A stretch of 64,000 nucleotides of DNA from Neocallimastix sp. 'constans' (taxonomy: Eukaryota). Position numbers and translations under genes: made by a program. The notes under the pieces were generated by a model, which saw only the letters and a list, made by a program, of their open reading frames with translations, was not told where the DNA came from and did no database searches. The DNA lies in the NCBI GenBank assembly GCA_050613775.1, contig JBODTK010000015.1, positions 558,001 through 622,000 of the forward strand. Direction: 5' to 3'. Below, piece by piece: positions 31,578 through 63,600 of the stretch (position 1 is its first letter; each line of letters opens with the position of its first letter).

Positions 31578-32999
31578 ATGGAAGAAAACATAACTATTTA
31601 TATAAGTGAGTCTAATAAAGGAGAAGAACAAATCATTATTAATAAACAATATAAATTTAATTTTTCACATTCAAGGAAAGATAATTCAAGAGTTTATAAA
31701 TGTACCAAATATAAAAAAAATAATAAATGTAAATCTTTTATTATTTTAAATAATGAGAAAGAAATCTTAAAATATGAGAGTTTACATAATCATCCTGGAA
31801 ACGAATACAGTGTATCCCTATCTGTAATGAAACATAAAATTAAAGATGAAATTAAAAAACATTCAAATCCTTTTGATATAAAACGAAAAAGACCATATAA
31901 TGAAATTTCTAAAGAAATGGGATTTATATATCCGTGTCCAGAATATATTTCAGTTAAAACTCTAATATTAAGAAGTATTAATAAAAAACTACCATCCAAT
32001 GTAACAACTTTTAATGAAATTCCTAATGAATCTGAATATTATAAAACTGAACGAAATGAAGATTTTATGATATTCAAAAATTCTGATTTAGTAATTTTTC
32101 AATCCCCTTTTCAAGCAAAATTATTTAAGAAATATAATAATGATATATTTGTGGATGGTACTTTTTATATCGCACCTAAATTTAGTCAACAAGTGTTTAT
32201 TACTAGAACTTACGTTAAAGAATTGAATAGTTTTTATACTACTTCTTATGCAATATTAAGAAATAAAAAGCAAAAAACATATAAAATGTTATTCAATAAA
32301 TTAAAACAAAATTCTAATAATAATATTATAACTGAACCAAAAAATGTACATTGCGATTTTGAAAAAGGCATATCTAAAGCAGTTAAAAAAATATTTCCTA
32401 ATATAAATATTAAATACTGTATTTGGCATTATAAAAATTTATTAGAAATTAAAAAAAATGAATTGTGCCGTAATGAAGTGAACGATGATGAAAAAATATT
32501 TAATTATTACAAAGGAATTTCAAACTTACCATTTATCAACCCTGAATACATAATGGATATTTTTTCATTAATTAAAACTAAATCCATTGAAAAAAATTCT
32601 TGTCAATTTTTAAAATTTTTAGAATATTTTTATGAAACATATTTAATTGGTTACGATATGAAAAGTTGGAATTATTATAATAATATTGAACATATAACCA
32701 ATAATGCTTCAGAATCACTCAATAATTCTTTAAATAAACTATTTCCAATGAAACCAAATTTTTATGAATTAATAAATAAATTAAAAGAACAGGAACATTT
32801 ATTATATTATGATTACCAAATGAAAATAAAAGGAATTTGGAGAATGAAAAAAAAAATAAAAACAAAAACTGATGAAATTAATATCTTAATTGATAAATAC
32901 AAAAATAAAGAAGCCAAGTTAATTAATATTAAATATGATAGAAGTGATCTTACTAAATTGTGGTTTGAATGTTTAACTAATTTAAATAATATTTTATAA
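31578..32999 (+). CDS. MULE transposase, 473 aa (FLYWCH-like zinc finger plus DDE domain)
   Basis: Uninterrupted ORF with YKC..C..HNH, VDGTF, HCDFE, YCIWHYK (CxxH) and TNNASESLN. Confidence 0.93.
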   Translation: MEENITIYISESNKGEEQIIINKQYKFNFSHSRKDNSRVYKCTKYKKNNKCKSFIILNNEKEILKYESLHNHPGNEYSVSLSVMKHKIKDEIKKHSNPFDIKRKRPYNEISKEMGFIYPCPEYISVKTLILRSINKKLPSNVTTFNEIPNESEYYKTERNEDFMIFKNSDLVIFQSPFQAKLFKKYNNDIFVDGTFYIAPKFSQQVFITRTYVKELNSFYTTSYAILRNKKQKTYKMLFNKLKQNSNNNIITEPKNVHCDFEKGISKAVKKIFPNINIKYCIWHYKNLLEIKKNELCRNEVNDDEKIFNYYKGISNLPFINPEYIMDIFSLIKTKSIEKNSCQFLKFLEYFYETYLIGYDMKSWNYYNNIEHITNNASESLNNSLNKLFPMKPNFYELINKLKEQEHLLYYDYQMKIKGIWRMKKKIKTKTDEINILIDKYKNKEAKLINIKYDRSDLTKLWFECLTNLNNIL

Positions 33000-34351: not shown

Positions 34352-36833
34352 GAATGTGAAGCATTTTGACATAATTTATGTATAATCATCATAAAATTTT
34401 GTACAATGTGTATAATATATGTAATACGCCACTATTTTCAATTTATATTTTTATTTATTGTTTTTTAGCATTAAAAAAATAAAATAAAAACAAAAAAAAA
34501 GAATAAATAAATGAATAAATGTATTTTAGCATTAAAAAAATAAAATAAAAACAAAAAAAGAATAAATTTTCTGTTGAGAATTTTATTTTATTTTTATTTT
34601 TTTTTAATTTTATTTTATTATTATATTTTATTATTAAATATTTTAATAATAAAACCTTTCCATTTTATTTTATTCAAATAAAATAAATAAAATTATATAT
34701 TTTATTATTAAATTAATTAAATAATAAAATAAAATTTATTATAATATTAAATATTTATTATTAATAAAATTTAAATATTGATATTGATATTAATAAAATA
34801 TTTTGATATTGATATTAATGAAATATTTTGATATTGATATTAATGAAATATTTTGACATTGATATTAATAAAATATATTGATATTGATATAAATATAATT
34901 TAAACTATATATATTCTAATTAATTATTATTCATATATTTAGAGTGTATTTAATTCTATTAAACATTTATACCATAAATCAATGATATCATTTTTTCACA
35001 TTTTTTATCAATTAATCGGATTCCTTTTTTTTTGTATTTTTTAATGAAATCATTGATTTCATCAGTTTTTGTTAATATTCTTTTTTTTTTTTTCCAAACT
35101 CCTTCAATTTTCCTTTTGTAATTATTGTAAGATAAAGATTCTTCTCTTTTTAAATGATAAATCAATTCATAGAAAGAAGGTTTTTTGTAAAACAATTTTT
35201 TTAAGTAATTGTTAAAAGATTCTGAAGCATTATTTGTTATGTGGTTTACATCGTTATAATAATTCCAATATTGAATATCATATTTATATAAATAAGTCTT
35301 ATTAAAATATTCCAAAAAATTTAAAAAATTGAAATAATTATATATTTGACATATAATTTTAATATAATTATAAATATCAAATATATATTCAGGATTTATA
35401 AAAGGAAAATTTGTAATAGCTTTATATAACAAATAAATTTTATGATTATTTTCAACTTCATTATAACAAAATTTATTTTTTTGAACTTCAAACGATCTTT
35501 TATAATGCCATACACAATATTTAATAGTAATATTATGAAATATTTTAATGGAAGCATTGGATATACTCTTTTCAAAATCACAAAGCAAAATTTTTGGTAT
35601 AACTATAATATTATTAATATAATTACTTATAATATTATTATTATAATTACTTTCATTCTTTTTTAATTCTTCAAATAACAATTCATAGGTTGCTTGTTCT
35701 TTATTATTTAATATAGATAGTGATGTAGTATAAAAACTATTTATTTCTGGAGCAAATACTCTTGTTATAAACACTTGATAACCAAATATTGGTGCAATAT
35801 AAAATGTACCATCAGCAAACATATGTTCGTTGTATTTTATAGACAATTCTGTTTGGAATGGGGAATGATGATTGAAAAATTATAATATTAGAATTTTTGT
35901 ATATCATAAAATTTTCATCTCTTTCGTTTATATAATATTCAGATTTATCTGGAATTTCATTAAATTTTGATATATATCAGGAGGTAGTTGTTTTTTAATA
36001 TATCTTGATATTTGGGATTTAATTGAAATATATTCAGGGCATATCAATCCAATTTCTTCAAATATTTCATTATATATGTTTTGGATTTATATCAAATGGG
36101 AATGAGGTTTTTCTTATTTCATTTTTCATTTTATGTTTTACTATTGATACAGATGCTTCATATTTTTTTCCTGGATGAGTATGTTTGTTTTCATATTTTA
36201 TTACTTTATTATTATCATTTAGAATAATGTAAGATTTATATTTTTTAACTGTTTTACATTTAGTATATTGGAATATTTTTGTATTATTCGTTATATACCA
36301 TAAATTAAATTTATATTTTCTATTTACAATGATTTGGTTTTTTTCTTTATTAGTTTCACTTATTTCTAATTGATCATCCATTTATTATAAATATTTTAAA
36401 TTAAAAGTTTTATTTTTTATATTTTAATTTTTTTTGTTTTAATCTATTTTTTTTTATCTTTTATTTTATTCTTTTTTTTTTTTTTTTTTTTTTTATTTTT
36501 TATTTTACTTTATTATTTATTTTTTTATTTTATATTTTACTTTTTTTTATATATTTTATATTTTATAATTTACTTTTATTTATTTTTTTTTTATTTTTTA
36601 TTTTACTTTATTCTTTATTTTTTTTATTTTTTATTTATTTTTTATTTACTTTATTATATATATATATATTTTTTTTACTGTAAATGTTTTTAAAATTAAA
36701 AAAAAAAAAAATAAAAATAAAAATAAAAATAAAAATAAATTTAACCCTATTCCTATTCATTTATTTTTACAAGCCACATTGTAATACATGAATAAATGAT
36801 CAAACATAAATTATGTCGAAATGCAATACTCCC
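34352..36833 (-). mobile_element. MULE DNA transposon with a defective transposase
   Basis: TIRs GAATGTGAAGCATTTTGACATAATTTATG / CATAAATTATGTCGAAATGCAATACTCCC, perfect 9-bp TSD ATAATTTAC (34343-34351, 36834-36842). Confidence 0.9.
34939..36381 (-). pseudogene. Disrupted MULE transposase
   Basis: ORFs 36070-36381 and 34959-35846: ADGTF, CDFE, YCVWHYK, TNNASESFN. Confidence 0.9.
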
Positions 36834-39921: not shown

Positions 39922-40571
39922 ATAGATAAATAAATAAATAAATAAATAGATAAATAAATAAATAGATAAATAAATAAATAATATTTTTAATTATTCATCA
40001 CCAAACAAAAAAAAAAATATTTAGTATTTGTAATTAATAATTAATTTAACTTTTATATTGTTTTTAATTTCATTTTTCATTTTATTTTTCATTTTATTTT
40101 TCTTCCTACAAAAATATTTAATACTATTCATGTTCATATTTATATTTATATTCATATTTATATTCATATTCATATTCATGTTCATATTTATATTTATATT
40201 ATTAATAAAATAATGTTATATATTGAAAAATAAATATTTAAATACTATTTTTATTATTAAAGTCATATAATATTATTGTATATAAATATAATATTTTTAT
40301 TATACTCTTATTTATTATTATTATTTATTTATTTATCAATTTATTAATTTATTAATTTATTAATTTATTTATTTATTATATATTTTTTTTCCTCTTTTCT
40401 TTTTATTATAAAAATTCTCTCTTTTATATAATATAAAATAATAATAATAATATTAATTTATAATTTTTACAATAAAAGTTTTATTTAAAATTAATAACTT
40501 TATAATATTTAAACTAAAATATAAATTTCGTTATTTTTTAATTTTTTTTTTTAATTGTTACTTAACTTAAT

Positions 40572-40770
40572 TTTTAGTAAAATCATTATCTGTTTCTCAG
40601 TATTTTTTTATCTTTCCATTTATATCTAATTTTAATAATTTTAGTAAAATCATTATCTGTTTCTCAGTATTTTTTTATCTTTCCATTTATATCTAATTTT
40701 AATAATTTTAGTAAAATCATTATCTGTTTCTCAGTATTTTTTTATCTTTCCATTTATATCTAATTTTAAT
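40572..40770. repeat. ~66-bp tandem repeat, 3 copies
   Basis: Unit TTTAGTAAAATCATTATCTGTTTCTCAGTATTTTTTATCTTTCCATTTATATCTAATTTTAATAA. Confidence 0.9.
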
Positions 40771-42447: not shown

Positions 42448-42621
42448 AATTTATTATTTAATTAATGCATCAGTAATTCACTATAATACTTTATTATGAA
42501 TTATATTTCAATTAAATTTTAACCTTAAAAAAAATATATAAATATATATAAAATGGAAATATATTCTTTTTTTTTCATTTTTATTCAACGTTTCTTTTAA
42601 TACTTTTAATATTATAATAAA

Positions 42622-45600
42622 ATGCTACTGAAATATTTTAAGTAATATATATATATTAATGCATAATTTAGTTGTTAAAGATATAATGTTTTACATAATT
42701 TTCTAAATTATTTAAATTTAATTTATAATTTCTTAATAAAAATATAGAATACTATATATTGTTTTATTTCAAGAATTTTTAATAAATTTTGTAAAAGCCC
42801 AGAGTAAATTACCTATAATTAAAATTTCAAATTTCATTATTTTATTTATTTTAAATATAAAAATAATTTAATAAATTATTATTTATTATTATTATTATTA
42901 TTTTAAAAATATGAATATGACTTAAATAACTAAAATTTATCATTAAATAACATATCGATATTATTTTATGCATAAATAATAAATATTTAATGTTAATATA
43001 TTTATTATTTCAATATATTTTTTAATTTTATTCCTTTTTTTATTTAAATAAAAATACAATAATTTAGATTTTAAGGAAGGTATGAAAAAATAATATATTT
43101 TAAAAAAATATATCAGTGATTTTTTTTTTTTTTACTTTGTAGTTTAGAGATAAAAATTATAAAGATATTTTTTATTTTTGTTATAGATATAGCTAATTTT
43201 TTAAATGGTTAAAAATAAATCATTTAAAAAATTAACTACAAAGAAATTTGAAATATTAGGTTTAATAAATTATATTTGTATTTAATTTTTGAGTTTATAA
43301 ATTTTATACTGAAATACTAAAAAAAAAAAAACTAATATATTTATAATATTTCTTTAGTTTGTTCTGCTGGTAAATTGGATAAATATATATATATATATAT
43401 ATACATTTAGTATATAATAAATTTAAAATAATTATATATATTAAAGTTATTGCCTTTTTTTACAATATTACTATATATTTAAATATATATATGTAAATAT
43501 TATTAATACAATATTTATGAATAGGGGTGGATACATGTACCGAGTGTAAATATCATTTATAATATATTGATATAATAAAATATATTATTATAATTAAATT
43601 ATTGTTAGAAAATGTTAAAGTTGCCTTTTTTATTATAATAATAATCTACTTATTAATATTTAACATTTCTTTTTAAATAATTTATTTGTAATTTTATAAA
43701 ATATTTGAAAAATATTGTAAAATAATAATAAAAATAAAGCCTGCAAGAGTTTTTGTAAGTCTTTCTTAATTATAAAATTTTATTTATTATTATTAATAAT
43801 ATTATATTTAATATAATAATATTATAAATTTTATCATTTTTAATTATATTTTTTATTAACACTATATATAATGCTTTTATTATAAAATATATTTAATAAT
43901 TTAATAAAAATTACATTTAATATTATTATTTTTTAAACACTTTAAAAAACATAAAATTTATTATTTAATATTAAAAATGGTTATTATATATATCATAAAA
44001 TTTATAATTTTATATTATAAACTATTTTACATATATGTAGTCGGTAAGTAAAACAACATAATTAAAAATATTTAATCATTATTTAAATTATTCTATTTAC
44101 TTCAATATTAAATGTATTTATTATATTTGGGCTAACTATATATATTTTCTATTTTATTTGCTTATTTAGAAGGTAGATATATATAAGTATTATTAAATAA
44201 TGTTCAATACATTTTTAATACATTCAGATTAATTATATATTAAATATATTAAATGTATTTTAAAATTTATTTGTTTAAATTCATTTATTTAAATAGTTCG
44301 TAAGTATAATTATATATTTAAATATATTATTAAAAAATAGTAATAATAAAAAAAAAACTAAAAATATTTGTTGAATAATACTTATTATAAATACTTTAAA
44401 TAAATAATTATTATAAAATTTTATATAAAAAAATATTTTATATAAATAGATCGTAAGTATAAATATATATTTAAATATACTATAAAATTTTTTTGAACGT
44501 TATTGTAAATAACATAAATTTATTATAAATATTTTTAAATATTTAAATATTATAAAATTTATACTACAAATTATTTTATATAAATAGCCTGTAAATATCA
44601 ATTTATGTTAAGTTATTAAATTAAATATTATTGAAATTAATTTGAAAAAACCATACATTTATTATAAATATTATAAATATTTAAATATTATTAATTATAT
44701 ACCACAAATTATTTCATATAAATAGGGAGTAAGTATAAATTTATGTTTAGTTATTATTAATAATTTTTGAAATTAATTGTAAAAAATATGTACTTACTAT
44801 CAATCAATCAAATATTTATTTATTAATTATTATCAATCATCCAAATATTTAATTATTATAAATTTTATAACACAAATTATTTCATATAAATAGCCTGTAA
44901 GTATAAATATACATTTAGATATTATTAAAATTTTTTGAATAATTTGTAAATAACATATAACTATTTTCAATTATTCATATAATTAATTAATATATATTTT
45001 ATATTACAAATCATTTTATTTAAATAGCCTGTAAGTATAAATATACATTTAGATATTATTAAAATTTTTTGAATAATTTGTAAATAACATATAACTATTT
45101 TCAATTATTCATATAATTAATTAATATATATTTTATATTACAAATCATTTTATTTAAATAGACGGTAAGTATGAATATATATTTAAATAGATCATTAAAA
45201 TTTTTTTTGAAGAAAACTGATTTATAGATAGCATATATTAATTATCAATCATGCAAATATTCGATTATAATAAATTTTATAATACAAATTATTCCATATA
45301 AATAGTCCGTAAGTATAAATATATATTTAGATATTATTAAAATTTTTTGAATAATTTGTAAATAACATATATCTATTTTCAATTATTCATATAATTAATT
45401 AACATATATTTTATATTCCATATCATTTTATTTAAATAGACGGTAAGTATAAATATAAATTTAAATGTATTATTAAAATTTTTTTAAAAACTAATTTTAG
45501 ACAACATATATTTATTATAAATATATTAAATTTTAACTACAAATTACTTTATCTAAATAGGCAGTAAGTATAAATATATATTTAAATGTATCATTAAAAT

Positions 45601-48600
45601 TTTTTTAAAAACTAATTTTAGACAACATATATTTATTATGAATATTTTAAATATTGAATAATTGTAAATTTTATAATACAAATTATTTCATATCAGTAGG
45701 GGGTAAATATGAATTTATGTTTAGTTATTATTAAATATTATTGAAATTAATATGTAAATAACATATACTTATTATCAATCATTCAAATATTTGATTATTA
45801 TAAATTTTGTTTTATAAATTCTTTTATATAAATAGGATGTAAGTATAAATTTATGCTTAAATATATTATTAAAATTTTTTAAAATTAATTGTAAAATAAT
45901 ATATAGATTATTAATCATTAAAGTATTTAATCCTTAAAATATTTAATTATTATAAAATAAAAGTAAATGACATATATTTATTATTAATCATTCATATATA
46001 TTCGATTATTATAAATTTTGCATTATAAATTGTTTTATATAAACAGGGAGTAAGTATAAATATAAAATTAAATTTATTATTAGTTTTTTTTGAAATTAAT
46101 TTGTAAATTATACTCATTTATCAACCATTCGAATATTTAATTATTAATAATTTTATAATATAACTGGTTTAATGTAAATAGCTCGTAAGTACAAATATAT
46201 ATTTAATTTTATTATTAAAAAATTTTTTAAATGAATTTTTAATAACATATATTTATTATCAATAATTCAAACATTTAATTATAAATTTTATATTAATAAT
46301 AATATATAAATAGCATGTAAGTATATTTATTTAAGTAGATTAATAAAATTTTTTTTAAAATTATATATATTTATAATTAATCATTTAAATATTTAACTAT
46401 TATAAAATTTATATTATAAATCATTTCATTAAAAATCATTTATATAATTTGATTATTATTATTAATATTCTATTACAAATTATTTCATATAAATAGGGCG
46501 TAAGTATAAATATATAATTAAATTTATTATTAGTACTTTTTTGAAATTAATTGTAAATAACCTAAATTTTTTATCAATCATTTAAATATTTAATTATTAT
46601 ATATTTTATATTATTAATTATACTATTTAAATTTAAATAGCTATTAGTAAGTATAAATGTTTATTTAACTTTATTATTAAAAATTGTCAAATATAATCAT
46701 AAATAACATATATTTATTATACATATCTTCAATATTTAATTATCTAAAAATTATTTCATATTAATAGATAGTAAGTATAAATATATTCTAATTTAATATA
46801 AATAATTTATTGAAATTAATGATAAATAAAAAATATTTATAATAAATTTTTTAAAATATTTAATTATTATAATATTTATTCAAAAATTTAATTATATAAA
46901 TAGGCCGTAAGTATAAATATATAATTAAATTTATTATTAATATTTTTTTTTTTTGAAAATAATAATAAATAACCTATATTTATTATAAATATTTTAAATA
47001 TGTAATTATTATAATTTTTATAAAAAAATATTTAAATAAATAGTAGGTAAGTATAAGTTTATACTAAAATGATATTAAAAATTTTTGAAATGCTATTGTC
47101 AATAAACATATATTTATTATCAATTAAATTAAAATATTTAATTATTATCAAATTTTTATTATAAATTATTTCATATAATAGCTAGTAAGTATAAGTATAA
47201 ATATATATATAAGTATATTATAAAAAATTTTAAAACTAATTGTATTAACATATATTTATTATAAATATTTTTAATATTTAATAATTATACAATTTATACT
47301 ACAAATTGTTTTATATAAATAGGCCGTAAGTTTAAATACATATATTAAGTATACTTTAAAAAATTTTTGAAACTAATTGTATTAACATATATTTATTATT
47401 AATTAAATTAAAATATTTAATTATCAAATTTTTATTATAAATTATTTCATATAATAGTTAGTAAGTATAAATATATATATAAGTATATTATAAAATTTTT
47501 TTGAAACTAATTGTATTAACATATATTTATTATAAATATTTTTAATATTTAATAATTATACAATTTATACTACAAATTGTTTTATATAAATAGGAAGTAA
47601 GTTTAAATATATATATATTAAGTATACTTTAAAAAATTTTTGAAACTAATTGTATTAACATATATTTATTATAAATATTTTTAATATTTAATAATTATAC
47701 AATTTATACTACAAATTACTTTATCTAAATAGACTGTAGGTTTTAAATATATATTTAAATGGATTATTAGAATTTTTTAAAATTAATTTTATAATAATAT
47801 TTATTATCAATCGTTCAAATATTTAATTATTATAAATTTTATAATATAAATTGTTTCATATAATTAGATTATAAAGTATAAATAATATACTTTAAAATAT
47901 TTATAAAAATTTAAAATTTTTTGAAATTAATTTTAAATATCATATATTTATAATAATTTTTTTATATATTAATTATTATAAATTTTTTTTTTACTATAAA
48001 TTATATAAATAAATAGGCAGTAAATATAAATAAATAATTAATTATATTAAAAATAACATTTGAAATTGTAAATAACAAATATTTTAATAATATTAATAAT
48101 ATTATATTACAAATTATTTCATATAAAAAGATGGTAAGATTAATTTTTTGTTTAATTGTTATTAAAAAATTTTAAAAATAATTGAAAATAACATATATTT
48201 ATTATAAATATTTTTAATATTTAATAATTATAAAATTTTAACTACAAATTACTTTATCTAAATAGGCAGTAAGTATAAATATATATTTAAATGTATCATT
48301 AAAATTTTTTTAAAAACTAATTTTAGACAACATATATTTATTATAAATATTTTAAATATTGAATAATTGTAAATTTTATAATACAAATTATTTCATATCA
48401 ATAGGGGGTAAATATGAATTTTATGTTTAGTTATTATTAAATATTATTAAAATTAATATGTAAATAATATATACTTATTATCAATCATTCAAATATTTGA
48501 TTATTATAAATTTTGTATTATAAATTCTTTTATATAAATAGGCCGTAAGTATAAATAATATACTTTAATATTATATTAAAAAATTAAAAATTTATAATAA

Positions 48601-51600
48601 ATAACATATATTTATCAAAAATATTTTCAATATTTGTTTTTATTAATACTATACTACAAATTATTTTATTATAAACAGCGTGTAAGTAAATATATAATTA
48701 AATATATAATAATTTTTTTTGGAATTAATTGTATAATATATATTACATATATTTATTTTCAATCATTCAAATATTTGATTATTATTAATTTTATGCTGCA
48801 AAATATTACATGTAAATAGGCGGTAAGTATAAATATATAATTAAATATTTTATTAATAGTTTTTAAAACTAATTATAAATAATTAATATCTATTATCAAT
48901 TATTCAAAAATTTAATTATTGTAAATTTTTTAAACTGTTTCATACAAATAGTTAGTAAGTATAAATAATATAATTAAATGTATTAATAAAATTTTTTAAA
49001 AATTAATTGTAAATAACATATATTTATTATAAATATTATAAATATTAAATAATTGTAATTTTTAAAATACAAATTATTTCATATCAATAGGAGGTAAATA
49101 TGAATTTTATGTTTAGTTATTATTAAATATTATTAAAATTAATATGTAAATAATATATACTTATTATCAATCATTCAAATATTTGATTATTATAAATTTT
49201 GTATTATAAATTCTTTTATATAAATAGGCCGTAAGTATAAATTTATCCTAAAAGATATTATTAAAAAATTTTGAAATTAATTGTATGTTGCATTTATTTA
49301 TTATTTATATTCTAAATATTTGATTATTAAAAAATTATGATACAAAATATTTTGAATAAATAGCCTGTAAGTATAAATTTATGTTTAAATATATTATTAA
49401 AATTTTTTAAAATTAATTGTAAAATAATATATAGATTATTAATCATTAAAGTATTTAATTCTTAAAATATTTAATTATTATAAATTAATATTATAAATTA
49501 TTTCATATAAATAGATAGTAAGTATAAATATATAGTTTAATATATATATAAAATATTATAAAATTAATTATTAATAAACTCTATTTGTTATAAATCATTT
49601 ATATAATTTGATTATTATTAATATTATACTACAAATTATTTCATATAAATAGAAAGTAAGTTTAAATATATATTTAAATATATTGTAAAAAAAAAAAAAG
49701 AAAATTAAAATAAATTGTAAATAAACATATATTTAATATAAATATTTTAAATATTTAAATATTATTAATATTATACTACAAATTATTTTGTATAAATAGA
49801 AAGTAAGTATAAATTTATATTTTTATATATTTTTGAAATTAATTGAAAATAACTAATGTTTATTATAAATATGTTAAATATTTAATTATTATTAATTTTA
49901 TACTACAAAATTATTTCATATAAATAGGTGGTATGTATAAATATATATTTAATTTTTATTATTAAAATTTTTTGGATGTAATTGTAAATAACAAAATATT
50001 TATTTATTATTAATTTTATACTACAAAATATTTCATATAAAATAGTTGGTATGTATAAATTTATGCCTGGATATTATTAAAAATTTTTGAAATTATTAAA
50101 ATTAATTTAATAAACATATATTTATATATAAATATATATAATTAATGTTTGATAATTTTATATTTTTAATTTTATATTGCTAATTGTTTCAAATGAAAAG
50201 AACGTGAGCATATATATAAATATAAATTTAAAAATATATTAAATAATTATATATGAGTATTAAAAAATATATTTAAAATATTTAATAAATTTTAATATTA
50301 TATAATTAATAATTCTGTATAAAATAGTCAGTAAGTATAAATAAATATATATTACTTTGTTAATAAAATTATTTAAATTATAATAATTAAAATACATTTT
50401 AAAAAAAAATTTAAAAAAATTATATATTAATTTATATATTTTATTTATTGTTACTCATAAATAGTATGTAAGTATAAATATATAGTAAATACATTATAAA
50501 TGCATTTAAATTTATTATAATTAATTTATTTATAAATTATATCTTAATAAATATTTTAAATAATAATATATATTTTTAATTTTTATTTAAAAATTTATTT
50601 TATATAAATAGTTGGAACGGATGGTAAATATGAAATAATGAAATTATATGAATTAATAATAAAAAAATTTTTTTTTAATAAAAGTGCTTAAAAAATATTA
50701 ATAATATTTAAATTAAATTGTACATAAAATATATCTAATTTATTTTAAAAAAAATAAAATAATTTAAAATAAAATTATTTTATTTTATTTTTTTTTTTAA
50801 ATAAAATGGTATATTTAAATAGAAGTAAAGATAATTATAAAGTTAAATTTATTTTATAAGTTTATAGAATATTTTAATAATATCTTATATATATTTAATT
50901 TTTACTTATTTTTATGATAATTTTAATTATTCCCAAATAAAAAATGTCAATAAAATATATCATAAAACTTTAAATATTAATATATTATAAAAGGTATATA
51001 TATTTATATAAATTTATTATAATTAATAATTCATAAAATATACATTTACTAATTATATTTATATTTAAATTTATTCAATACAATACAATATAAATATAAA
51101 TAGGATGTAAGTATAAATTATCATATTGAAATGTTAATTTAAACGTTATTAAATATAAATAAATCAAATATTCAAATCTTTAAAATTGATTTTTATAAAA
51201 TTAATATTATATCATAAATTAAATTTACTTTAATAGTAGGTAAATACTGAATATTAGAAAATTATCAAAATTAATAAAATTAAATATATATAAATTCATA
51301 TTTTAAATATTTTATCTATAAAAAAAATATTTTTTCTTATAAGATAACAAAAGTGGTAAGTATATTATAATATTATTATAAATAAATAAATATATATATA
51401 ATATTAATTAAAGCTATAAAAAATTAAAATAGAATTATTTTTTTTACTAACTTAATTCAATATTTTAAAAATAATTAATATTTATATTAATGTAAAGGAT
51501 ATAATGATTGTGTTAATCGTAAGTAAAATTAAAGTTTTTAAATAATAATAATTATTAAATAAAAAAAAATTAATATGAATAATATATTTAAATAATTATT

Positions 51601-54600
51601 TTAAAAACTAATTAAATTAAATAATATTAAATTATATATTATAAATGTTAAAATTTATTGAATTTTGATATTTAAATTGATACGAACATTTTTTTTTTCA
51701 TAAATTATATAATATAATTCTTAAAATATTATTTAAAGAATGCACTGGTAAGTATTAAAAAAATAATATATATATGTATATATATTTATTTATTTAAAAG
51801 TATTATAAATTCATCAAAATTAAAATTTTAAATAATATTTTTATCAATATATCAAATTTATATTACATAAATAATTCATATAATTAAATAATAATAATAT
51901 TTTATTATTATTATTATTATTATTATTATAATTATTATTATTATTATAATTATTATTATTATTATTATTTATAAATTAAAAATTTATTTTTTTGCTTCTA
52001 CTTTGTTGAATTTTTAAATATTTAATTATTTAGATATTTGTGGTAAGTAATTTTACTATAAATTTTTTTTCTTTTTAAAATAAATATATATATATATATT
52101 ATATATATATATAATTATTAATGATTTCATATAAAAATATTAGAAATATAAAAAAATAATTTTTAAGCATTAAAAATATTTTATTAATAATATTTTTTTA
52201 ATTAATTTACTATTTATTTTTATTATTTTTTATAATTTATAAATTATCATTAATAGAAACGGATAATAATTGTCAAACATGTAATTATAATAAATAATTT
52301 TTTATTTTTTTAATTAAAATATTTATATTAAATTCAATTAGAATTTTATATATTAAATTAATAAATATTTCTTTATATATTTTAAAAAAAATTCACTTTT
52401 AAAATGTGAATAGGTTGTAAATCTGGTAATTAAATATATATATATATACAAAATAAAATAAAAAAAAATTCTTTTTAAAGTTTTATATTTATAAGGATTA
52501 ACAATAAGAAAATAATTTTTTTTATTTTAATAAAAATTTTTTATTAAATTAAATGAAACATATAAAAAAAAATATATTTTAAAAATTTATAAAAAAATAT
52601 ACAACTCGATTAAAAATATTAAATAATTTAAAAAAAAAATTTAATTATTTAAAAAATTTATTTTAACATATATGTATCGAAAATAAAAATATATAATTTT
52701 TTTTTATAATTTAATATTTTTACATTTCTAATTTAAATTATAAGCTTGTGAAGAAGGTAAATAAAATTTTAATAATAAATTAATCATAATAATATGATAA
52801 TATAATATAATATAATGTGATATAATATGATAAAATTATTAAACATTTATTTTATTTTAATTTCTTTTCTATATGATTTATAAATTATCAATATTATTTA
52901 TCATTATATCTACAAATTTTAAAATATATTTTAACAAATAATTTTTAGGTCTTAAATCATTTAATAAAGGTATAAATAAATAATAGTATGATAAATATAA
53001 AATGAATCCAAAAAATAATATTTAAAATTTTTATAATTTTTATAATTTTTATTACAAAAAATAAATGTATTTTTTATGTTAATAAATATAATATATATAT
53101 ATTATATTATATATATTGTTTAATTTGATAAAATATAAAAATTAAAACATTTATATATTAAATTTTGAATCAATAAAAATAAAAAAAAAACTTAAATGAA
53201 TAAAATATAACAGATAATAATTCCAGAATAACAATAAAACCAAATTACTGCGAAACTTGTAAGTATTATTAATATATATTAAAATTAAGGATTAATCGTC
53301 AAAAATAAAAAAAAATAATAATAAAAGTAATAGTAATTCCTATTCCAAAATACCTAATAATATAATAATAATAATATAAATTTAAAGAAAAAAATATGAA
53401 AATATAAAAATGTAAAAATTAGTAATAAAGTTAAAAAATATACAAATATGTATTAATTAAAAATTATATAAGATTCATTAATGTAAAGAAAAAATTTAAA
53501 AATTTCTTTACATTAATGAAAGTTTTTTCTTTTATCATCAATATTTAAAAAAAAATATGTATATTTATTTAATTATTTAGATATAAAATATTTTTTTGAA
53601 ATTATAATTTTATTATTGAAATATATAATTATCTTTATATATATTTAGTTTATTTTAATGGATAAAAATATAAGAATTTAAATAATTAAACTATTTGTTA
53701 TTAATATATATTTTTATAATTAATATTAATAAACTTGAAAAATAATAATAATTATAATAATAAAAAACATAAATAAAATAAAATGAAAAGGTAAGCTATT
53801 TATTGAATGAATATAATAATAAATTAAAATTATAAAAATAATAATTAAATATTTTATATTAAGACATAATAATATTGAAATTCTTTAATAAATAATTAAA
53901 ATATTGATGTTTTTAACAAATATATTCTATTAATATATAAAATAAAACTCTATTATTTTATAATAATAAAATAATTTATATGATTAAATATTTTTTTTTA
54001 AAAAATAATAGTTTGTACAGAAGGTAAAAATATTAAATATAATTGAATGGTATTTTTATATTTTAAATATATTACAAAGAAGCTTTTCTAAAAATATATT
54101 AACTTGTTTCCTTTTTTATAATTAATTAATTAATTAATTATTTATTTATTTATAATAAAAGAATGGAATGGATGTGAAAACTATTTTAATGGTAAATAAA
54201 TATTATTGCTTAATTAAAATAAATAAACAAAAAATAATAATAGCATTAAAAATAATTATTAATATCTTTAATATTAATATTTATAAATATTATTATTTAA
54301 TGGAAAAATAATTATTAAATAAAATTTTAAATATATTTCAAAATATTTTAATTAATATATATTCGAAAATAAAAATATTTCAATTATATAAATGAATAAA
54401 AATATACTTATATATATTTTAATTTAATTAATAATTTATTTATTCATTGTTGATATTATATCCATTATTATTTGTAATGTATCATTAATTAATAAATGAT
54501 TTTATTCAAAGAAAATGATTGCGAAAAGGGTAAAATAAAATTATATTATTATATTTTAATTTTTTATTGAAATATTTATAATTTTTTTATTAGTAATAAA

Positions 54601-57600
54601 TATAAATTTATTTATTAGAAATTTATGAATAATTAATATATTTTTTTATAATAAATATTTTATTAAAATTAATTGATAAAATAGAAGAAGAAGAAAATGA
54701 AGAAGAGAATGAAGAAGAAGAAGAAGAAGAAGAGAATGAAGAGGAAGAAGAGGAAGAAGAAGAAAATGAAGAAGAAGAAGAAGAGAATGAAGGAGAAGAA
54801 GAAAATGAAGAGGAAGAAGAACAAGAGAATGAAGAGGAAGAAGAAGAAGAAGAAGAGAATGAAGAAGAAGAAGAAGAAGAAAATGAAGAAGAAGAAGAAG
54901 AGAATGAAGAAGAAGAAGAAGAAGAAGAGAATGAAGAAGAAGAAGAAGAAGAAGAGAATGAAGAAGAAGAAGAGAATGAGGAAGAAGAAAATGAAGAAGA
55001 AAATGAAGAAGAAGAAGAAGAAGAAGAAAATGATGAGGAAGAAAATGAGGAAGAAGAAGAGAATGAGGAAGAAGACGAGAATGAAGAGGAAGAAGAAGAA
55101 GAGAATGAAGAAGAAGAAGAAGAAGAAGAAAATGAAGAAGAAAATGAAGAAGAAGAAGAAGAAGAGAATGAAAAGGAAGAAGAAGAAGAAAATGAAGAAG
55201 AAAATGATGAGGAAGAAAATGAGGAAGAAGAAGAGAATGATGAAGAAGAAGAAGAGGAGAATGAAGAAGAAGAAGAAAATGATGAGGAAGAAAATGAGGA
55301 AGAAGAAGAGAATGAGGAAGAAGACGAGAATGAAGAGGAAGAAGAAGAAGAAAATGAAGAAGAAGAAGAAGAAGAGAATGAGGAAGAAGAAGAGAATGAA
55401 GAGGAAGAAGAAGAAGAGAATGAAGAAGAAGAAGAAGAAGAAGAAAATGAAGAAGAAAATGAAGAAGAAAATGAAGAAGAAGAAGAAAAAGAAGAAGAAG
55501 AAGAAAATGAAGAAGAAGAAGAAAAAGAAGAAGAAGAAGAAAATGAAGAAGAAAATGAAGAAGAAGAAGAAGAAGAAGAAAATGATGAGGAAGAAAATGA
55601 GGAAGAAGAAGAGAATGAGGAAGAAGACGAGAATGAAGAGGAAGAAGAAGAAGAGAATGAAGAAGAAGAAGAAGAAGAAGAAAATGAAGAAGAAAATGAA
55701 GAAGAAGAAGAAGAAGAGAATGAAAAGGAAGAAGAAGAAGAAAATGAAGAAGAAAATGATGAGGAAGAAAATGAGGAAGAAGAAGAGAATGATGAAGAAG
55801 AAGAAGAGGAGAATGAAGAAGAAGAAGAGAATGAGGAAGAAGAAAATGAAGAAGAAAATGAAGAAGAAGAAGAAGAAGAAGAAGAAGAAGAAAATGATGA
55901 GGAAGAAAATGAGGAAGAAGAAGAGAATGAGGAAGAAGACGAGAATGAAGAGGAAGAAGAAGAAGAAAATGAAGAAGAAGAAGAAGAAGAGAATGAGGAA
56001 GAAGAAGAGAATGAAGAGGAAGAAGAAGAAGAGAATGAAGAAGAAGAAGAAAAAGAAGAAGAAGAAGAAAATGAAGAAGAAGAAGAAGAAGAAGAAAATG
56101 ATGAGGAAGAAAATGAGGAAGAAGAAAATGAAGAAGAAGAAGAAGAAGAAGAAGAGAATGAAGAAGAAGAGAATGAAGAAGAAGAAGAAAATGAGGAAGA
56201 AGAAAATGAAGAAGAAAATGAGGAAGAAGAAAATGAAGAAGAAAATGAAGAAGAAGAAGAAGAAGAGAATGAAAAGGAAGAAGAAGAAGAAGAAGAGAAT
56301 GAAAAGGAAGAAGAAGAAGAAAATGAAGAAGAAAATGATGAGGAAGAAAATGAGGAAGAAGAAGAGAATGATGAAGAAGAAGAAGAGGAGAATGAAGAAG
56401 AAGAAGAGAATGAGGAAGAAGAAAATGAAGAAGAAAATGAAGAAGAAGAAGAAGAAGAAGAAGAAGAAGAAAATGATGAGGAAGAAAATGAGGAAGAAGA
56501 AGAGAATGAGGAAGAAGACGAGAATGAAGAGGAAGAAGAAGAAGAAAATGAAGAAGAAGAAGAAGAAGAGAATGAGGAAGAAGAAGAGAATGAAGAGGAA
56601 GAAGAAGAAGAGAATGAAGAAGAAGAAGAAAATGAAGAAGAAAATGAAGAAGAAGAAGAAAAAGAAGAAGAAGAAGAAAATGAAGAAGAAGAAGAAAATG
56701 AAGAAGAAGAAGAAAAAGAAGAAGAAGAAGAAAATGAAGAAGAAAATGAAGAAGAAGAAGAAGAAGAAGAAAATGAAGAGGAAGAAGAAGAAGAAGAAGA
56801 GAATGAAGAAGAAGAAGAAGAGAATAAAGAAGAAGAAGAAGAAGAAAATGAAGAAGAAGAGAATGAAGAAGAAGAAGAAGAGAATGAAGAAGAAAATGAA
56901 GAAGAAAATGAAGAAGAAGAGAATGAAGAAGAAGAAGAAGAAGAAAATGAAGAAGAAAATGAAGAAGAAGAAGAAGAAGAAGAAAATGAAGAAGAAAATG
57001 AAGAAGAAGAAGAAAAAGAAGAAGAAGAAGAAAATGAAGAGGAAGAAGAAGAAGAGAATGAGGAAGAAGAAGAGAATGAAGAGGAAGAAGAAGAAGAAGA
57101 AGAAGAGAATGAGGAAGAAGAAGAGAATGAAGAGGAAGAAGAAGAAGAAGAAGAAGAGAATGAAGAAGAAGAAGAAGAAGAAGAAAATGAAGAGGAAGAA
57201 GAAGAAGAAGAAGAGAATGAAGAGGAAGAAGAAGAAGAAAATGAAGAAGAAGAAGAAGAAGAAAATGAAGAAGAAGAAGAAGAAGAGGAGGAGAATGAAG
57301 AAGAAGAAGAGAATGAGGAAGAAGAAGAGAATGAGGAAGAAGAAGAAGAAGAAGAAAATGAAGAAGAAAATGAAAAAGAAGAAGAAAAAGAAGAAAATGA
57401 AGAAGAAGAAGAAGAAGAAGAAGAAAATGAAGAAGAAGAAGGAGAGAATGAAGAAGAAGAAGAAAATGAAGAGGAAGAAGAACAAGAGAATGAGGAAGAA
57501 GAAGAGAATGAAGAAGAAGAAGAAAATGAAGAGGAAGAAGAACAAGAGAATGAGGAAGAAGAAGAGAATGAAGAAGAAAATGAAGAAGAAAATGAAGAAG

Positions 57601-60600
57601 AAGAAGAAAATGAAGAAGAAGAAGAAAATGAAGAAGATGAAGAAGAAGAAAATGAAGAAGATGAAGAAGAAGAAAATGAAGAAGAAAATGATGAGGAAGA
57701 AAATGAGGAAGAAGAAGAAAATGAAGAAGAAGAAGAAGAAGAAGAAGAGAATGAAGAGGAAGAAGAAGAAGAAAATGAGGAAGAAAAGAATGAAGAAGAA
57801 GAAGAAGAAGAAGAAAATGAAGAAGAAGAAAATGAGGAAGAAGAAGAAAATGAAGAAGAAGAAGAAGAAGAGAATGAGGAAGAAGAAGAAGAAAATGAGG
57901 AAGAAGAGAATGAAGAAGAAGAAGAAGAAGAAGAAAATGAGGAAGAAGAGAATGAAGAAGAAGAAGAAGAAGAAGAAAATGAAGAAGAAGAAGAAGAAGA
58001 AGAGAATGAAGAGGAAGAAGAGGAAGAAGAAGAAAATGAAGAAGAAGAAGAAGAGAATGAAGGAGAAGAAGAAAATGAAGAGGAAGAAGAACAAGAGAAT
58101 GAAGAGGAAGAAGAAGAAGAAGAAGAGAATGAAGAAGAAGAAGAAGAAGAAAATGAAGAAGAAGAAGAAGAGAATGAGGAAGAAGAAGAGAATGAAGAGG
58201 AAGAAGAAGAAGAAGAAGAAGAAGAGAATGAAGAGGAAGAAGAAGAGAATGAAGAAGAAGAAGAAGAAGAGGAGAATGAAGAAGAAGAAGAAAATGAAGA
58301 AGAAAATGAAGAAAATGAGGAAGAAGAAAATGAGGAAGAAGAAAATGAGGAAGAAAATGAAGAGGAAGAAGAAGAAGAAGAAGAGAATGAGGAAGTAGAA
58401 AATGAGGAAGAAGAAAATGAGGAAGAAGAAAATGAAGAAGAAGAAAATGAAGAAGAAGAAGAAGAAGAAGAAAATGATGAGGAAGAAAATGAGGAAGAAG
58501 AAAATGAAGAAGAAGAAGAAGAAGAAGAAGAGAATGAAGAAGAAGAGAATGAAGAAGAAGAAGAAAATGAGGAAGAAGAAAATGAAGAAGAAGAGAATGA
58601 AGAGGAAGAAGAAGAAGAAAATGAAGAAGATGAAGAAGAAGAAAATGAAGAAGAAAATGATGAGGAAGAAAATGAGGAAGAAGAAGAAAATGAAGAAGAA
58701 GAAGAAGAAGAAGAAGAGAATGAAGAGGAAGAAGAAGAAGAAAATGAGGAAGAAAATGAAGAGGAAGAAGAACAAGAAGAAGAGAATGAGGAAGAACTAA
58801 ATGAGGAAGAAGAAGAAGAAAATGAGGAAGAAGAAGAAGAAGAAGAGAATGAAGAGGAAGAAGAAGAAGAAAATGAAGAAGAAGAAGAAGAGAATGAGGA
58901 AGAAGAAGAGAATGAAGAGGAAGAAGAAGAAGAAGAAGAAGAAGAGAATGAAGAGGAAGAAGAAGAGAATGAAGAAGAAGAAGAAGAAGAGGAGAATGAA
59001 GAAGAAGAAGAAAATGAAGAAGAAAATGAAGAAAATGAGGAAGAAGAAAATGAGGAAGAAAATGAAGAGGAAGAAGAAGAAGAAGAAGAGAATGAGGAAG
59101 AAGAAAATGAAGAAGAAGAAAATGAAGAAGAAGAAGAAGAAGAAGAAAATGATGAGGAAGAAAATGAGGAAGAAGAAAATGAAGAAGAAGAAGAAGAAGA
59201 AGAAGAGAATGAGGAAGAAGTAAATGAGGAAGAAGAAGAAAATGAAGAAGAAGAAAATGAAGAAGAAGAGAATGAAGAGGAAGAAGAAGAAGAAAATGAA
59301 GAAGATGAAGAAGAAGAAAATGAAGAAGAAAATGATGAGGAAGAAAATGAGGAAGAAGAAGAAAATGAAGAAGAAGAAGAAGAAGAAGAAGAGAATGAAG
59401 AGGAAGAAGAAGAAGAAAATGAGGAAGAAAAGAATGAAGAAGAAGAAGAAGAAGAAGAAGAAGAGAATGAAGAGGAAGAAGAAGAAGAAAATGAGGAAGA
59501 AAAGAATGAAGAAGAAGAAGAAGAAGAAGAAAATGAGGAAGAAAATGAAGAGGAAGAAGAACAAGAAGAAGAGAATGAGGAAGAACTAAATGAGGAAGAA
59601 GAAGAAGAAAATGAGGAAGAAGAAGAAGAAGAAGAGAATGAAGAGGAAGAAGAAAATGAGGAAGAAGAAGAAAATGAAGAAGAAGAAAATGAAGAAGAAG
59701 AAAATGAAGAAGAAGAAGAAGAAGAGAATGAAGAAGAAGAAGAAAATGAAGAAGAAGAAGAAGAAGAAAATAAAGAAGAAGAAGAAGAAGAAGAAGAAGA
59801 GAATGAGGAAGAAGAAGAAGAAGAAAATAAAGAAGAAGAAAATGAAGAAGAAGAAGAAGAGAATGAAGAGGAAGAAGAAGAAAATGAGGAAGAAGAAGAA
59901 GAAGAAGAAAATGAAGAAGAAGAAGCTGTTGAAGAAGAAGAAGAGAATGAAGAAGAAGAAGAAAATGAGGAAGAAGAAGAAGAAAATGAAGAAGAAGAAG
60001 AAGAGAATGAAGAAGAAGAAGAAGAAAATGAGGAAGAAGAAAATGAAGAACAAGAAAATGAAGAAGAAGAAAATGATGAAGAAGAAAATGATGAAGAAGA
60101 AAATGAAGAAGAAGAAGAAGAAGAAAATGAGGAAGAAGAAAATGAAGAAGAAGAAGAAAATGAAGAAGAAGAAGAAAATGAAGAAGAAGAAGAAAATGAG
60201 GAAGAAGAAGTAGAAAATGAAGAAGAAGAAGAAGAAGAAGAAAATGATGAAGAAGTGAATAAAGAAGAAGAAGAAAATGAAGAAAAAGAGAATGAAGAGG
60301 AAGAAGAAGAAGAAAATGAGGAAGAAGAAAATGAGGAAGAAAATGAAGAGGAAGAAGAAGAAGAAGAAGAGAATGAAGAAGAAGTAAATGAGGAAGAAGA
60401 AGAAAATGAAGAAGAAGAAAATGAAGAAGAAGAAGAAGAGAATGAAGAAGAAGAAGAAAATGAAGAAGAAGAAGAAGAAGAAGAAAATGAAGAAGAAGAA
60501 GAAGAAGAAAATGAGGAAGAAGAAGAAGAAGAAGAAAATGAAGAAGAAGAAGAAGAAGAAAATGAGGAAGAAGAAAATGAGGAAGAAAATGAAGAGGAAG

Positions 60601-63600
60601 AAGAAGAAGAAGAAGAGAATAAGGAAGAAGAAAATGAGGAAGAAGAAAATGAGGAAGAAAATGAAGAGGAAGAAGAAGAAGAAGAAGAGAATGAGGAAGA
60701 AGAAAATGAAGAAGAAGAAAATGATGAAGAAGAAGAAGAAGAAGAAAATGAGGAAGAAGAAAATGAAGAAGAAGAAAATGAAGAAGAAGAAAATGAAAAA
60801 GAAGAAAATGAAGAAGAAGAAAATGAAAAAGAAGAAGAAGAGAATGAGGAAGAAAATGATGAAGAAGAAAATGAGGAAGACAATGAAAAAGAAAATGAAG
60901 AAGAAAATGAAGAAGAAGAAGAAGAAGAGAATGAAAAGGAAGAAGAAGAAGAAAATGAAGAAGAAAATGATGAGGAAGAAAAAGAAGAAGAAGAAGAAAA
61001 TGAAGAGGAAGAAGAACAAGAGAATGAAGAGGAAGAAGAAGAAGAAGAAGAAGAGAATGAAGAAGAAGAAGAAGAAGAAGAAGAGAATGAAGAAGAAGAA
61101 GAAGAGAATGAAGAAGAAAATGAAGAAGAAGAAAATGAAGAGGAAGAAGAAGTAGAAAATGAAGAGGAAGAAGATGTAGAAAATGAAGAGGAAGAAGAAG
61201 AAGAAGAAGAGAATGAGGAAGAAGAAAATGAAGAAGAAGAAAATGATGAAGAAGAAGAAGAAGAAGAAAATGAGGAAGAAGAAAATGAAGAAGAAGAAAA
61301 TGAAGAAGAAGAAAATGAAAAAGAAGAAAATGAAGAAGAAGAAAATGAAAAAGAAGAAGAAGAGAATGAGGAAGAAAATGATGAAGAAGAAAATGAGGAA
61401 GACAATGAAAAAGAAAATGAAGAAGAAAATGAAGAAGAAGAAGAAGAAGAGAATGAAAAGGAAGAAGAAGAAGAAAATGAAGAAGAAAATGATGAGGAAG
61501 AAAAAGAAGAAGAAGAAGAAAATGAAGAGGAAGAAGAACAAGAGAATGAAGAGGAAGAAGAAGAAGAAGAAGAAGAGAATGAAGAAGAAGAAGAAGAAGA
61601 AGAAGAGAATGAAGAAGAAGAAGAAGAGAATGAAGAAGAAAATGAAGAAGAAGAAAATGAAGAGGAAGAAGAAGTAGAAAATGAAGAGGAAGAAGAAGTA
61701 GAAAATGAAGAGGAAGAAGAAGTAGAAAATGAAGAGGAAGAAGAAGTAGAAAATGAAGAGGAAGAAGAAGTAGAAAATGAAGAGGAAGAAGAAGTAGAAA
61801 ATGAAGAGGAAGAAGAAGTAGAAAATGAAGAGGAAGAAGAAGTAGAAAATGAAGAGGAAGAAAATGAAGAAGAAGAAGAAGAAAATGAGGAAGAAGAAAA
61901 TGAAGAAGAAGAAGAAGAAAATGAGGAAGAAGAAAATGAAGAAGAAGAAGAAGAAAATGAAGAAGAAGAAGAAGAAATTGAAGAGAATGAAGAAGAAGAA
62001 GAGAATGAAGAAGAAGAAGAGAATGAAGAGGAAGAAGAAGAAGAAAATGAAGAAGAAAAAAAAGAAGAGGAAGAAAATGAAGAAGAAGAAGAAGAGGAAG
62101 AAAATGATGAGGAAGAAAATGAGGAAGAAGAAGAAGAAGAAGAAGAAAATGAGGAAGAAGAAAATGAAGAAGAAGAAGAAGAAATTGAAGAGAATGAAGA
62201 AGAAGAAGAGAATGAAGAAGAAGAAGAGAATGAAGAGGAAGAAGAAGAAGAAAATAAAGAAGAAGAAGTAGAAAATGAAGAAGAAGAAGCTGTTGAAGAA
62301 GAAGAAGAAGAAACTGTTGAAGAAGAAGAAGAAAAAGAAGAAGAAGAAGAAAATGATGAAGAAGAAAATGAAGAAGAAAATGAAGAAGAAGAAGAAGAAG
62401 AGAATGAGGAAGAAAATGAAGAGGAAGAAGAAAATGAGGAAGAAGTGAATGAAGAAGAAAATGAAGAAGAAGAAGAAGAAGAGAATGATGAAGAAGAAAA
62501 TGAAGAAGAAGAAGAAGAAGAGAATGATGAAGAAGAAAATGAAGAAGAAGAAGAAGAAGAAGAGAATGATGAAGAAGAAAATGAAGAAAAAGAAGAAGAA
62601 GAGAATGATGAAGAAGAAGAAGAAGAAGAAGAGAATGAAGAGGTAGAAGAAGAGAATGAGGAAGAAGAAGAAGAAAATGAGGAAGTAGAAGAAGAGAATG
62701 AGGAAGAAGAAGAAGAAAATGATGAAGAAGAAAATGAAGAAGAAGAAGAAGAAGAGAATGAAAAGGAAGAAGAAGAAGAAAATGAAGAAGAAAATGATGA
62801 GGAAGAAAATGAGGAAGAAGAAGAGAATGAAGAAGAAGAAGAAGAAGAAGAAAATGAAGAAGAAAATGAAGAAGAAGAAGAAGAAGAGAATGAAAAGGAA
62901 GAAGAAGAAGAGAATGAGGAAGAAAATGATGAAGAAGAAAATGAGGAAGACAATGAAGAAGAAAATGAAGAAGAAAATGATGAAGAAGAAAATGAAGAAG
63001 AAGAAGAAGAAAATGAAGAGAATGAAGAAGAAGAAGAGAATGAAGAGGAAGAAGAAGAAGAAAATGAAGAAGAAGAAGCTGTTGAAGAAGAAGAAGAAGA
63101 AACTGTTGAAGAAGAAGAAGAAAATGAAGAAGAAGAAAATGAGGAAGAAGAAGAAGAGAATGAGGAAGAAGAAGAAGAAAATGATGAGGAAAATGAAGAA
63201 GAAGAAAAAGAGAATGAAGAAGAAAATGATGAGGAAGAAAATGAAGAAGAAGAAGAGAATGAAGAGGAAGAAGAAGAAGAAAATGAAGAAGAAGAGTGTG
63301 TTGGTTGTAATGAAGAAGAAGAGAATGAAGAAGAAGAAAATGAAGAAGAAGAAGAAGAAAATGAGAAAGAAGAAAATGAAGAAGTAAAAGAAGAAAATGA
63401 AGAAGAGAATGAAGAGGAAGAAGAAGAAAATGAAGAAGAAAATGAAGAAGAAAATGAAGAAGAAGAAAATATTGAAGAAGAGTGTGCTGGTTGTAATGAA
63501 GAAGAAAATGAAGAAGAAGAAGAAGAAGAGAATGATGAAGAAGAGAATGATGAAGAAGAAAATGATGAAGAAGAAAATGAAGAAGAAGTAATTGAAACGG

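Follow-up and report, generated by a model that had tools for sequence, protein, structure and literature searches.

Arrays of codon-sized exons are already known in fungi. The closest precedent for the gene described here is provided by the NACHT-ANK (nank) genes of the truffle Tuber melanosporum, which are described as diversifying through alternative splicing of multiple, or even tens of, codon-sized micro-exons (PMC4986451, PMC3689799, PMC13449251). Herein we examine a gene from the anaerobic gut fungus Neocallimastix sp. 'constans' that is built like the truffle genes, but that belongs neither to the nank family nor to the micro-exon genes (MEGs) of schistosomes. The gene lies in a 64,000-nucleotide (nt) stretch of contig JBODTK010000015.1 (assembly GCA_050613775.1, positions 558,001 to 622,000 of the forward strand), hereafter called the window, and it includes an array of 49 micro-exons, 46 of which are only 3 nt long.

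Schistosome MEGs are described as being restricted to flatworms, and carry symmetric exons that are mostly about 15 nt in length (6 to 36 or 6 to 81 nt), with 10 to 20 per gene and introns of up to 5 kb (PMC5825161, PMC10526429, PMC4350168). In the mushroom Coprinopsis cinerea, 27 three-nt exons have been reported in 26 genes genome-wide (bioRxiv 10.1101/2024.05.10.593147). In addition, the repeat domains of fungal NLR proteins (WD, ANK, and TPR) are reported to undergo concerted evolution and to contain positively selected sites (PMC4986451).

The Neocallimastix gene resembles the truffle nank genes in being a fungal gene with tens of codon-sized exons whose product is proposed to function in recognition, and its 46 three-nt exons are matched by a database protein called P0122. 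However, the two genes come from different phyla, and the Neocallimastix product is likely to be secreted whereas the nank products are intracellular receptors. No Pfam match to NACHT or ANK is present in the 248 residues of P0122 at E values up to 10, and the rest of the reading frame in the window is a Glu repeat. Furthermore, nank genes form an expanded family, whereas we observed one copy in the window and the proteins searched. Extensive alternative splicing is reported for the nank genes; the single product observed here shows full exon inclusion. Like MEGs, the gene has a leader followed by many small symmetric exons, such that 81% of the first 523 coding nt reside in exons of 36 nt or less. 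MEG products are secreted or surface exposed, and the Neocallimastix product may be as well, with a hydrophobic leader and 16 Cys in residues 25 to 174 as judged by eye. Unlike MEGs, the most common exon length is 3 nt (46 of 68 exons), 67 of the exons are small, and the array introns are only about 134 nt long. Short exons make up about 80% of MEG coding sequence, compared to at most 4.3% of the Neocallimastix frame within the window, owing to a giant Glu-rich exon. No flatworm MEG-like match was found among 1.84 billion representative sequences. MEGs are also characterized by variant proteins that arise through exon skipping and by raised dN/dS between orthologs; scans of metagenome contigs yielded no orthologous array for such a comparison.

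As in C. cinerea, the internal 3-nt exons have been overlooked by annotation, although here 46 of them occur in one gene. As with fungal NLR repeats, the shuffling or exchange of repeats could serve as the source of protein variation, but the NLR repeat is a whole protein module with selected sites, whereas the repeat examined herein consists of an intron plus three coding bases for which selection is not established. In the literature searched, which largely excluded subscription journals, no array of this kind was described for anaerobic fungi. Searches of earlier findings gave nothing for this genome or sequence, and the micro-exon reports listed there deal with exons of 21 to 82 nt in animals and a phage.

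Sixty-eight exons of this gene are present in the window, beginning with an ATG at position 42622 and ending with a giant exon that starts at position 54685. Exon 2 sets the phase, such that every later exon in the gene model is a multiple of 3 in length and is in phase 1. P0122, a 248-residue protein from a 1,132-nt JGI/IMG contig, was found by a search with the exon-2 reading frame. A second protein, P0123 (ORX99082.1, an N. californiae gene model), corresponds to exons 1 to 6 plus read-through into intron 6, with 65 of 65 residues matching, and thus provides independent support for these exons. The public model ORX99082.1 (window positions 42622 to 43816) ends just before the array, so this type of gene is invisible in that annotation. 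The parts of the gene are as follows.

42622 to 42641, plus strand: exon 1, carrying the ATG and 20 nt of coding sequence; start of the likely signal peptide, with the same start as P0123
42748 to 42803, plus strand: exon 2, 56 nt; remainder of the hydrophobic leader, fixing phase 1 downstream
43068 to 43754, plus strand: exons 3 to 6, of 12, 12, 21, and 15 nt; residues 26 to 46 with three Cys, present in P0122 and P0123
44041 to 51239, plus strand: micro-exon array of 49 exons and 162 coding nt; residues 46 to 100 (a 54-residue stretch), matched by P0122
51344 to 54529, plus strand: 12 constant exons of 9 to 45 nt each, all multiples of 3; residues 100 to 175 with eleven Cys
54685 to 64000, plus strand: giant exon with a frame of 3,104 codons that is open to the end of the window; its first codons are in P0122

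Over its first 174 residues, the corrected 68-exon model is identical to P0122 (174 of 174), and the match extends to residue 231, with the first mismatch at model residue 232. Within the array-coded portion, 54 of 54 residues are identical, whereas the best of 2,000 exon-order shuffles matches at 11. The part of the gene matched by P0122 spans more than 12 kb of genomic DNA, and therefore the P0122 contig is too short to carry the introns. Given its size and the protein match, we infer that this contig is a cDNA. The letter-for-letter agreement with the joined exons indicates that the tiny exons are truly spliced together, and thus supports an earlier note on this DNA that had recognized the triplets as coding exons from the sequence alone. 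P0122 represents one product carrying all 49 array exons in order, and says nothing about its abundance or strain of origin. The open frame of the joined exons is by itself not significant (p = 0.15 when exon order is shuffled). At the start of P0122, the first 8 residues come from within an array intron (45251 to 45274) and are joined to the ATG through an 11-nt shared word (42611 to 42621); these residues likely reflect a template switch by reverse transcriptase or an assembly chimera.

The array comprises 46 exons of 3 nt, two of 6 nt, and one of 12 nt, all in phase 1 and separated by introns with a median length of 134 nt. The longest uninterrupted run of 3-nt exons is 27. A strict scan for AG-NNN-GT cassettes yielded 44 in positions 44000 to 51300, compared to a mean of 0.26 and a maximum of 2 in 300 Markov resamples, and elsewhere in the window only two were found on the plus strand and one on the minus strand. 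When other exon lengths (0 to 9 nt) were allowed in the same scan, three were found in total within this interval. All triplets and coordinates quoted in the earlier note are correct, as is its observation that the triplets are about half G/C while the introns are almost all A/T (52% versus 9% G+C). There are 31 distinct triplets among the 46.

Our first gene model differed from P0122 at two places, and both differences are explained by the window. Three array positions depart from the simple cassette pattern.

44170 to 44172, plus strand: 3-nt exon with a non-consensus donor, overlooked in the strict first scan and required by P0122
45697 to 45702, plus strand: 6-nt exon, in which one intron base that differs from the sister copies creates an upstream acceptor and adds one residue
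47841 to 47895, plus strand: likely dead cassette with its acceptor kept and its donor degenerate, inside a double-length intron of 281 nt and absent from P0122

Thus, an exon previously placed at 45700 does exist, but it is spliced as 6 nt from 45697 rather than as a triplet. Most array donors fit the consensus. The included 3-nt exons with non-consensus donors GTAGAT (44173) and GTGAGC (50204) are candidates for skipping. Two other exons, at 47044 and 51237, read TAG, so that a second acceptor abuts the donor and its use would yield an exon of zero length; P0122 uses the upstream acceptor at both.

Residues 1 to 24 of the predicted product likely form a signal peptide, as judged by eye. Three of the 16 Cys in residues 25 to 174 precede the array-coded insert, two lie within it, and eleven follow it, and the insert is rich in Gly, Pro, and Trp. 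The giant exon encodes 2,479 Glu (80%) and 456 Asn (15%) among its 3,104 codons, and the C-terminus lies beyond the window. Single-base neighbors of the GAA codon (2,125 occurrences) in this exon include AAA (31), GTA (19), and CAA (10), with no TAA, although the repeats are non-independent. Two short Cys-pair motifs are also present inside this exon near positions 63290 and 63480. From its sequence, the product is likely composed of a signal peptide, a Cys-rich head with a variable insert, and a stalk of more than 3,100 mostly Glu residues, wherein the small head is probably disulfide bonded and carried on the very long acidic stalk. On the basis of this architecture alone, the most likely role, which we put forward tentatively, would be that of a variable recognition or adhesion head held off the cell by a very long acidic spacer.

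Homology searches recovered few relatives. Searching the 1.84 billion representatives gave four matches, of which only P0122 and P0123 are true and behind which relatives that are more than 50% identical would be hidden; P0124 and P0125 were discarded as acidic-repeat similarity. A search with the exon-2 frame (proteins of 77 to 2,000 residues) gave one genuine match among three candidates, namely P0122, and a search with P0122 residues 9 to 182 (lengths 136 to 434) gave one among 13, which is P0122 itself. For metagenome contigs, a cassette-pattern scan gave no matches, and a protein-guided scan gave 76 pattern matches with none confirmed. No paralog was found in the protein searches or elsewhere in the window.

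The block duplications described in the earlier note are confirmed; the blocks are 92 to 100% identical and occur in tandem as well as dispersed. The relevant features are as follows.

44300 to 50200, plus strand: homologous intron core of about 40 mutually homologous introns, representing one expanded unit
44887 to 45161, plus strand: recent tandem duplication of exon plus intron, with 141 nt identical; two identical triplets give different residues
45528 to 45850, plus strand: block copy 1, spanning three cassettes and matching 48233 to 48556 at 97.5% over 324 nt
47105 to 47672, plus strand: tandem duplication of a two-cassette block, CTA-GCC and TTA-GAA, with 47105 to 47399 and 47384 to 47672 being 93% identical
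48233 to 48556, plus strand: block copy 2, partner of 45528 to 45850
48954 to 49484, plus strand: partial block copy 3, sharing an identical stretch of 150 nt with copy 2, plus a segment matching 45828 to 45956

In addition, 48268 to 48556 is 95% identical to 48954 to 49242, and 44829 to 45070 is 92% identical to 45241 to 45484. The duplicated unit is an exon plus its downstream intron, and the array holds single-unit and two-unit tandem copies together with three-unit dispersed copies that have mosaic edges. The central introns, about 40 in number, score about twofold above the shuffled level when compared to each other, whereas introns toward either end of the array, and those flanking the constant exons, score near the shuffled level. 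Because block copies are both tandem and dispersed, and because homology is limited to the array center, the sequence supports the proposal, also made earlier, that the array has grown by unequal crossover. By analogy with known tandem arrays, the copy pattern is what would be expected of unequal crossover with conversion. Short-patch conversion between cassettes was considered as the source of changed triplets, but the 20- to 26-nt matches are uninformative because 37% of 141 exon positions have exact spans of at least 20 nt in any case. We also do not favor a transposable intron as the source of new introns, given that the exons have been copied along with them; the check for terminal repeats was by eye only.

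These features suggest a mechanism by which the array could alter the protein. Copying or losing the unit of intron plus triplet would leave the frame intact. Each triplet supplies the second and third codon positions of one residue and the first of the following residue, and since it straddles two codons, a change in the number or order of cassettes would create new residues without point mutation. This phase is also why two identical CCT copies give different residues. When one cassette is removed, the 46 possible cases give a new residue at the junction in 29, leave either of the two former residues there in 15, and create a stop in two. A gain of an acceptor, as at 45697, would add one residue, and the likely loss of a donor, as at 47868 (skipped in P0122), would remove one. 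The array likely expands and shrinks via unequal crossover, which would rewrite residues mainly through the re-pairing of split codons. With somewhat more confidence than doubt, we favor the view that this frame-neutral unit turns over by unequal crossover and that re-paired split codons rewrite a surface-exposed insert.

The earlier note had further proposed that the triplets diverge faster than their introns, and that they are subject to diversifying selection or targeted change. Some of the pairs it cited do not bear on this matter. The cassettes 45028 CCT and 45162 ACG have only one flank in common and are not sisters; their true sisters, 44894 CCT and 45440 ACG, respectively, carry identical triplets. 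Likewise, the block GCA-GGG-GAT does recur as GCA-GGG-GCC, but the pair of GAT (45836) and GCC (48542) lies at a block edge. On its upstream side GAT resembles the GCC cassettes, and on its downstream side it resembles CCT at 49364 (97%). If GAT is read as a GCC-CCT hybrid, only one synonymous change would be needed. In contrast, the cited recurrence of CTA-GCC as TTA-GAA is borne out by the tandem block listed above.

Only 8 of 1,081 pairs among 47 cassettes have both 60-nt flanks within 15% distance. Our main comparison used six hand-chosen blocks, which include two identical edge pairs and omit one identical and one differing edge pair; alternatives were a strict two-flank set (18 exon sites) and wider sets (27 and 30 exon sites). 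In the six blocks, 6 of 24 exon sites differ compared to 34 of 1,212 intron sites (p = 7e-5), and in the strict set the exon value is 6 of 18 (p = 1e-5). However, intron columns that contain G/C differ at 23 of 112, whereas A/T-only columns differ at 11 of 1,100, an approximately 20-fold contrast, and all six exon differences fall in G/C-containing columns. When such columns are compared like for like, the exon value is 6 of 20 and the difference from introns is not significant (p = 0.38, or 0.11 for the strict set), although this test over-corrects because gains of G/C are counted. A class-rate model gives six observed differences versus 1.9 to 2.0 expected for the strict set (p = 0.012 to 0.018), and for the other sets 6 versus 2.8 to 3.1 (p = 0.07 to 0.10) and 8 versus 3.2 to 3.4 (p = 0.02 to 0.03). 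Counted per exon, p values are 0.06 to 0.25. The raw 9- to 12-fold excess is therefore real, but it shrinks to 2- to 3-fold after composition control and then rests on four exons. Base composition accounts for most of the raw excess, and the faster change of triplets is likely to be mostly ordinary G/C-to-A/T mutation in exons that are rich in G/C, with diversifying selection not proven. In A/T-rich genomes, a control for base composition is needed whenever rates in exons and introns are contrasted.

Several explanations other than the one we favor merit consideration. The view that the triplets are not exons, but part of a repeat that merely resembles splice sites, is very improbable. The evidence for exons is a match at the protein level, namely to P0122, but shuffled exon orders fall far below the observed 54 matches, and both corrections to the model that P0122 called for were borne out by the window. 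This reading is already refuted, unless P0122 stems from computational gene prediction and not from the sequencing of a molecule. Another idea, which is compatible with the explanation we favor but which we consider rather unlikely, is that the array mainly serves combinatorial exon skipping to make a library of isoforms. Every array exon is frame-preserving, and when skipping was simulated at 2%, 10%, or 30% per exon, 94%, 75%, or 51% of products, respectively, stayed free of stops. Skipping also has reported precedents in truffle NACHT-ANK genes (PMC4986451, PMC3689799, PMC13449251) and schistosome MEGs. However, the sole product seen carries every one of the 49 exons in order, the donors mostly match consensus, and 55 of 1,176 possible skip junctions create stops in the first gene model. 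Protein searches revealed no skipped form, although in the search of representatives any forms that are more than 50% identical would be masked by a single entry.

The array might instead be a neutral, spliced-out minisatellite, wherein a 135-bp repeat expands and each copy adds one residue to a tolerant loop with no selected diversity. The frame-neutral unit, the tolerated dead cassette, the repeat- and transposon-rich neighborhood, and the lack of significance for the absence of stops all fit this explanation. It appears improbable given that neutral triplets should decay toward about 9% G+C yet remain at 52%, that splice dinucleotides and donor positions show no differences in 80 aligned columns, and that it would be costly to retain about 7 kb of intron sequence in order to encode 162 nt. 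We similarly doubt that diversifying selection, or a mutational process targeted to the triplets, is at work; neither is established. The residual rate excess, the non-synonymous nature of five of the six differences, the 31 distinct triplets among 46, and a high wobble-position G+C among distinct triplets (p = 0.005) are in its favor, and the first and last of these keep the idea alive. Conversely, two of the quoted pairs are register or edge effects, the like-for-like test is not significant, only four exons changed among six to nine pairs, and by our reasoning a random change would alter the residue in about two thirds of cases or more.

Some observations weigh against the mechanism we favor. 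The 2- to 3-fold exon excess survives composition correction (p = 0.012 to 0.10 per site), and all but one of the six exon differences, which is synonymous, alter a residue. Wobble-position G+C is 46% in the array (25 of 54) compared to 18% in the constant exons (22 of 119; p = 4e-4) and 13 to 19% in three transposon frames. The wobble C:T counts are 18:15 versus 11:57, respectively, for the array and constant exons, and remain high when only distinct triplets are counted (9:9 versus 11:57). Mutation bias alone does not predict this excess, which is unexplained. Block edges fall near exons in 6 of 14 cases (p = 0.07), but these are non-independent and the result is only suggestive. No allele or paralog with a different array was found in the contig, protein, and representative searches, so variability is visible only among copies within one sequence. 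Finally, no family, fold, or anchor was identified for the protein: Pfam gave four weak matches to P0122 below the cut-off, all on the Glu tail; a search of PDB sequences gave two chance matches (E values of 0.94 and 4.6); an Atlas search, run twice, gave no usable match; and a single-sequence fold had a mean predicted local distance difference test (pLDDT) score of 50, with values below 50 across the insert, and was not usable.

We speculate, with little confidence, that the locus is a residue-by-residue diversity generator for a recognition protein of anaerobic gut fungi, in which genomic recombination and RNA skipping of split-codon exons would create a library of binding loops on a stalk of up to about 1 micrometer, independent of the truffle system, and in which selection or a targeted process would hold the triplets near even composition in a 9% G+C setting.

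The region upstream of the gene (80 to 38762) is packed with frames that by eye resemble long terminal repeat (LTR) retrotransposons (e.g., 2636 to 7534, minus strand) and with copies of MULE transposase. One such transposase (31578 to 32999) has relatives that are 96 to 99% identical in Neocallimastix lanati, N. californiae, and N. sp. 'constans', and similar frames are present at 26222 to 26965 and 34959 to 35879. Together with the P0123 match, these relatives place the window in Neocallimastix by sequence, likely in N. californiae or a species very close to it. Upstream of the gene, at about 40570 to 40770, a unit of about 66 bp is repeated three times head to tail. Within a 753-nt intron, at about 53780 to 53800, an ATG is closely followed by a donor-like site that is unused by P0122.

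The value of this locus lies in its product-supported gene structure and in split-codon shuffling, rather than in the rate contrast. This one gene carries more 3-nt exons than an entire mushroom genome annotated with long reads, and a matching product exists while public annotation overlooks the array. The gene is well suited for testing how the spliceosome can join 27 consecutive exons of three bases each, and how exon arrays expand. Because the triplets are in phase 1, a change in copy number alone rewrites the protein, which would provide a route to variation without point mutation. If strains or transcripts prove to differ, then anaerobic gut fungi would possess a variable surface protein that has not been described before, and codon-sized exon arrays would have arisen at least twice in fungi.

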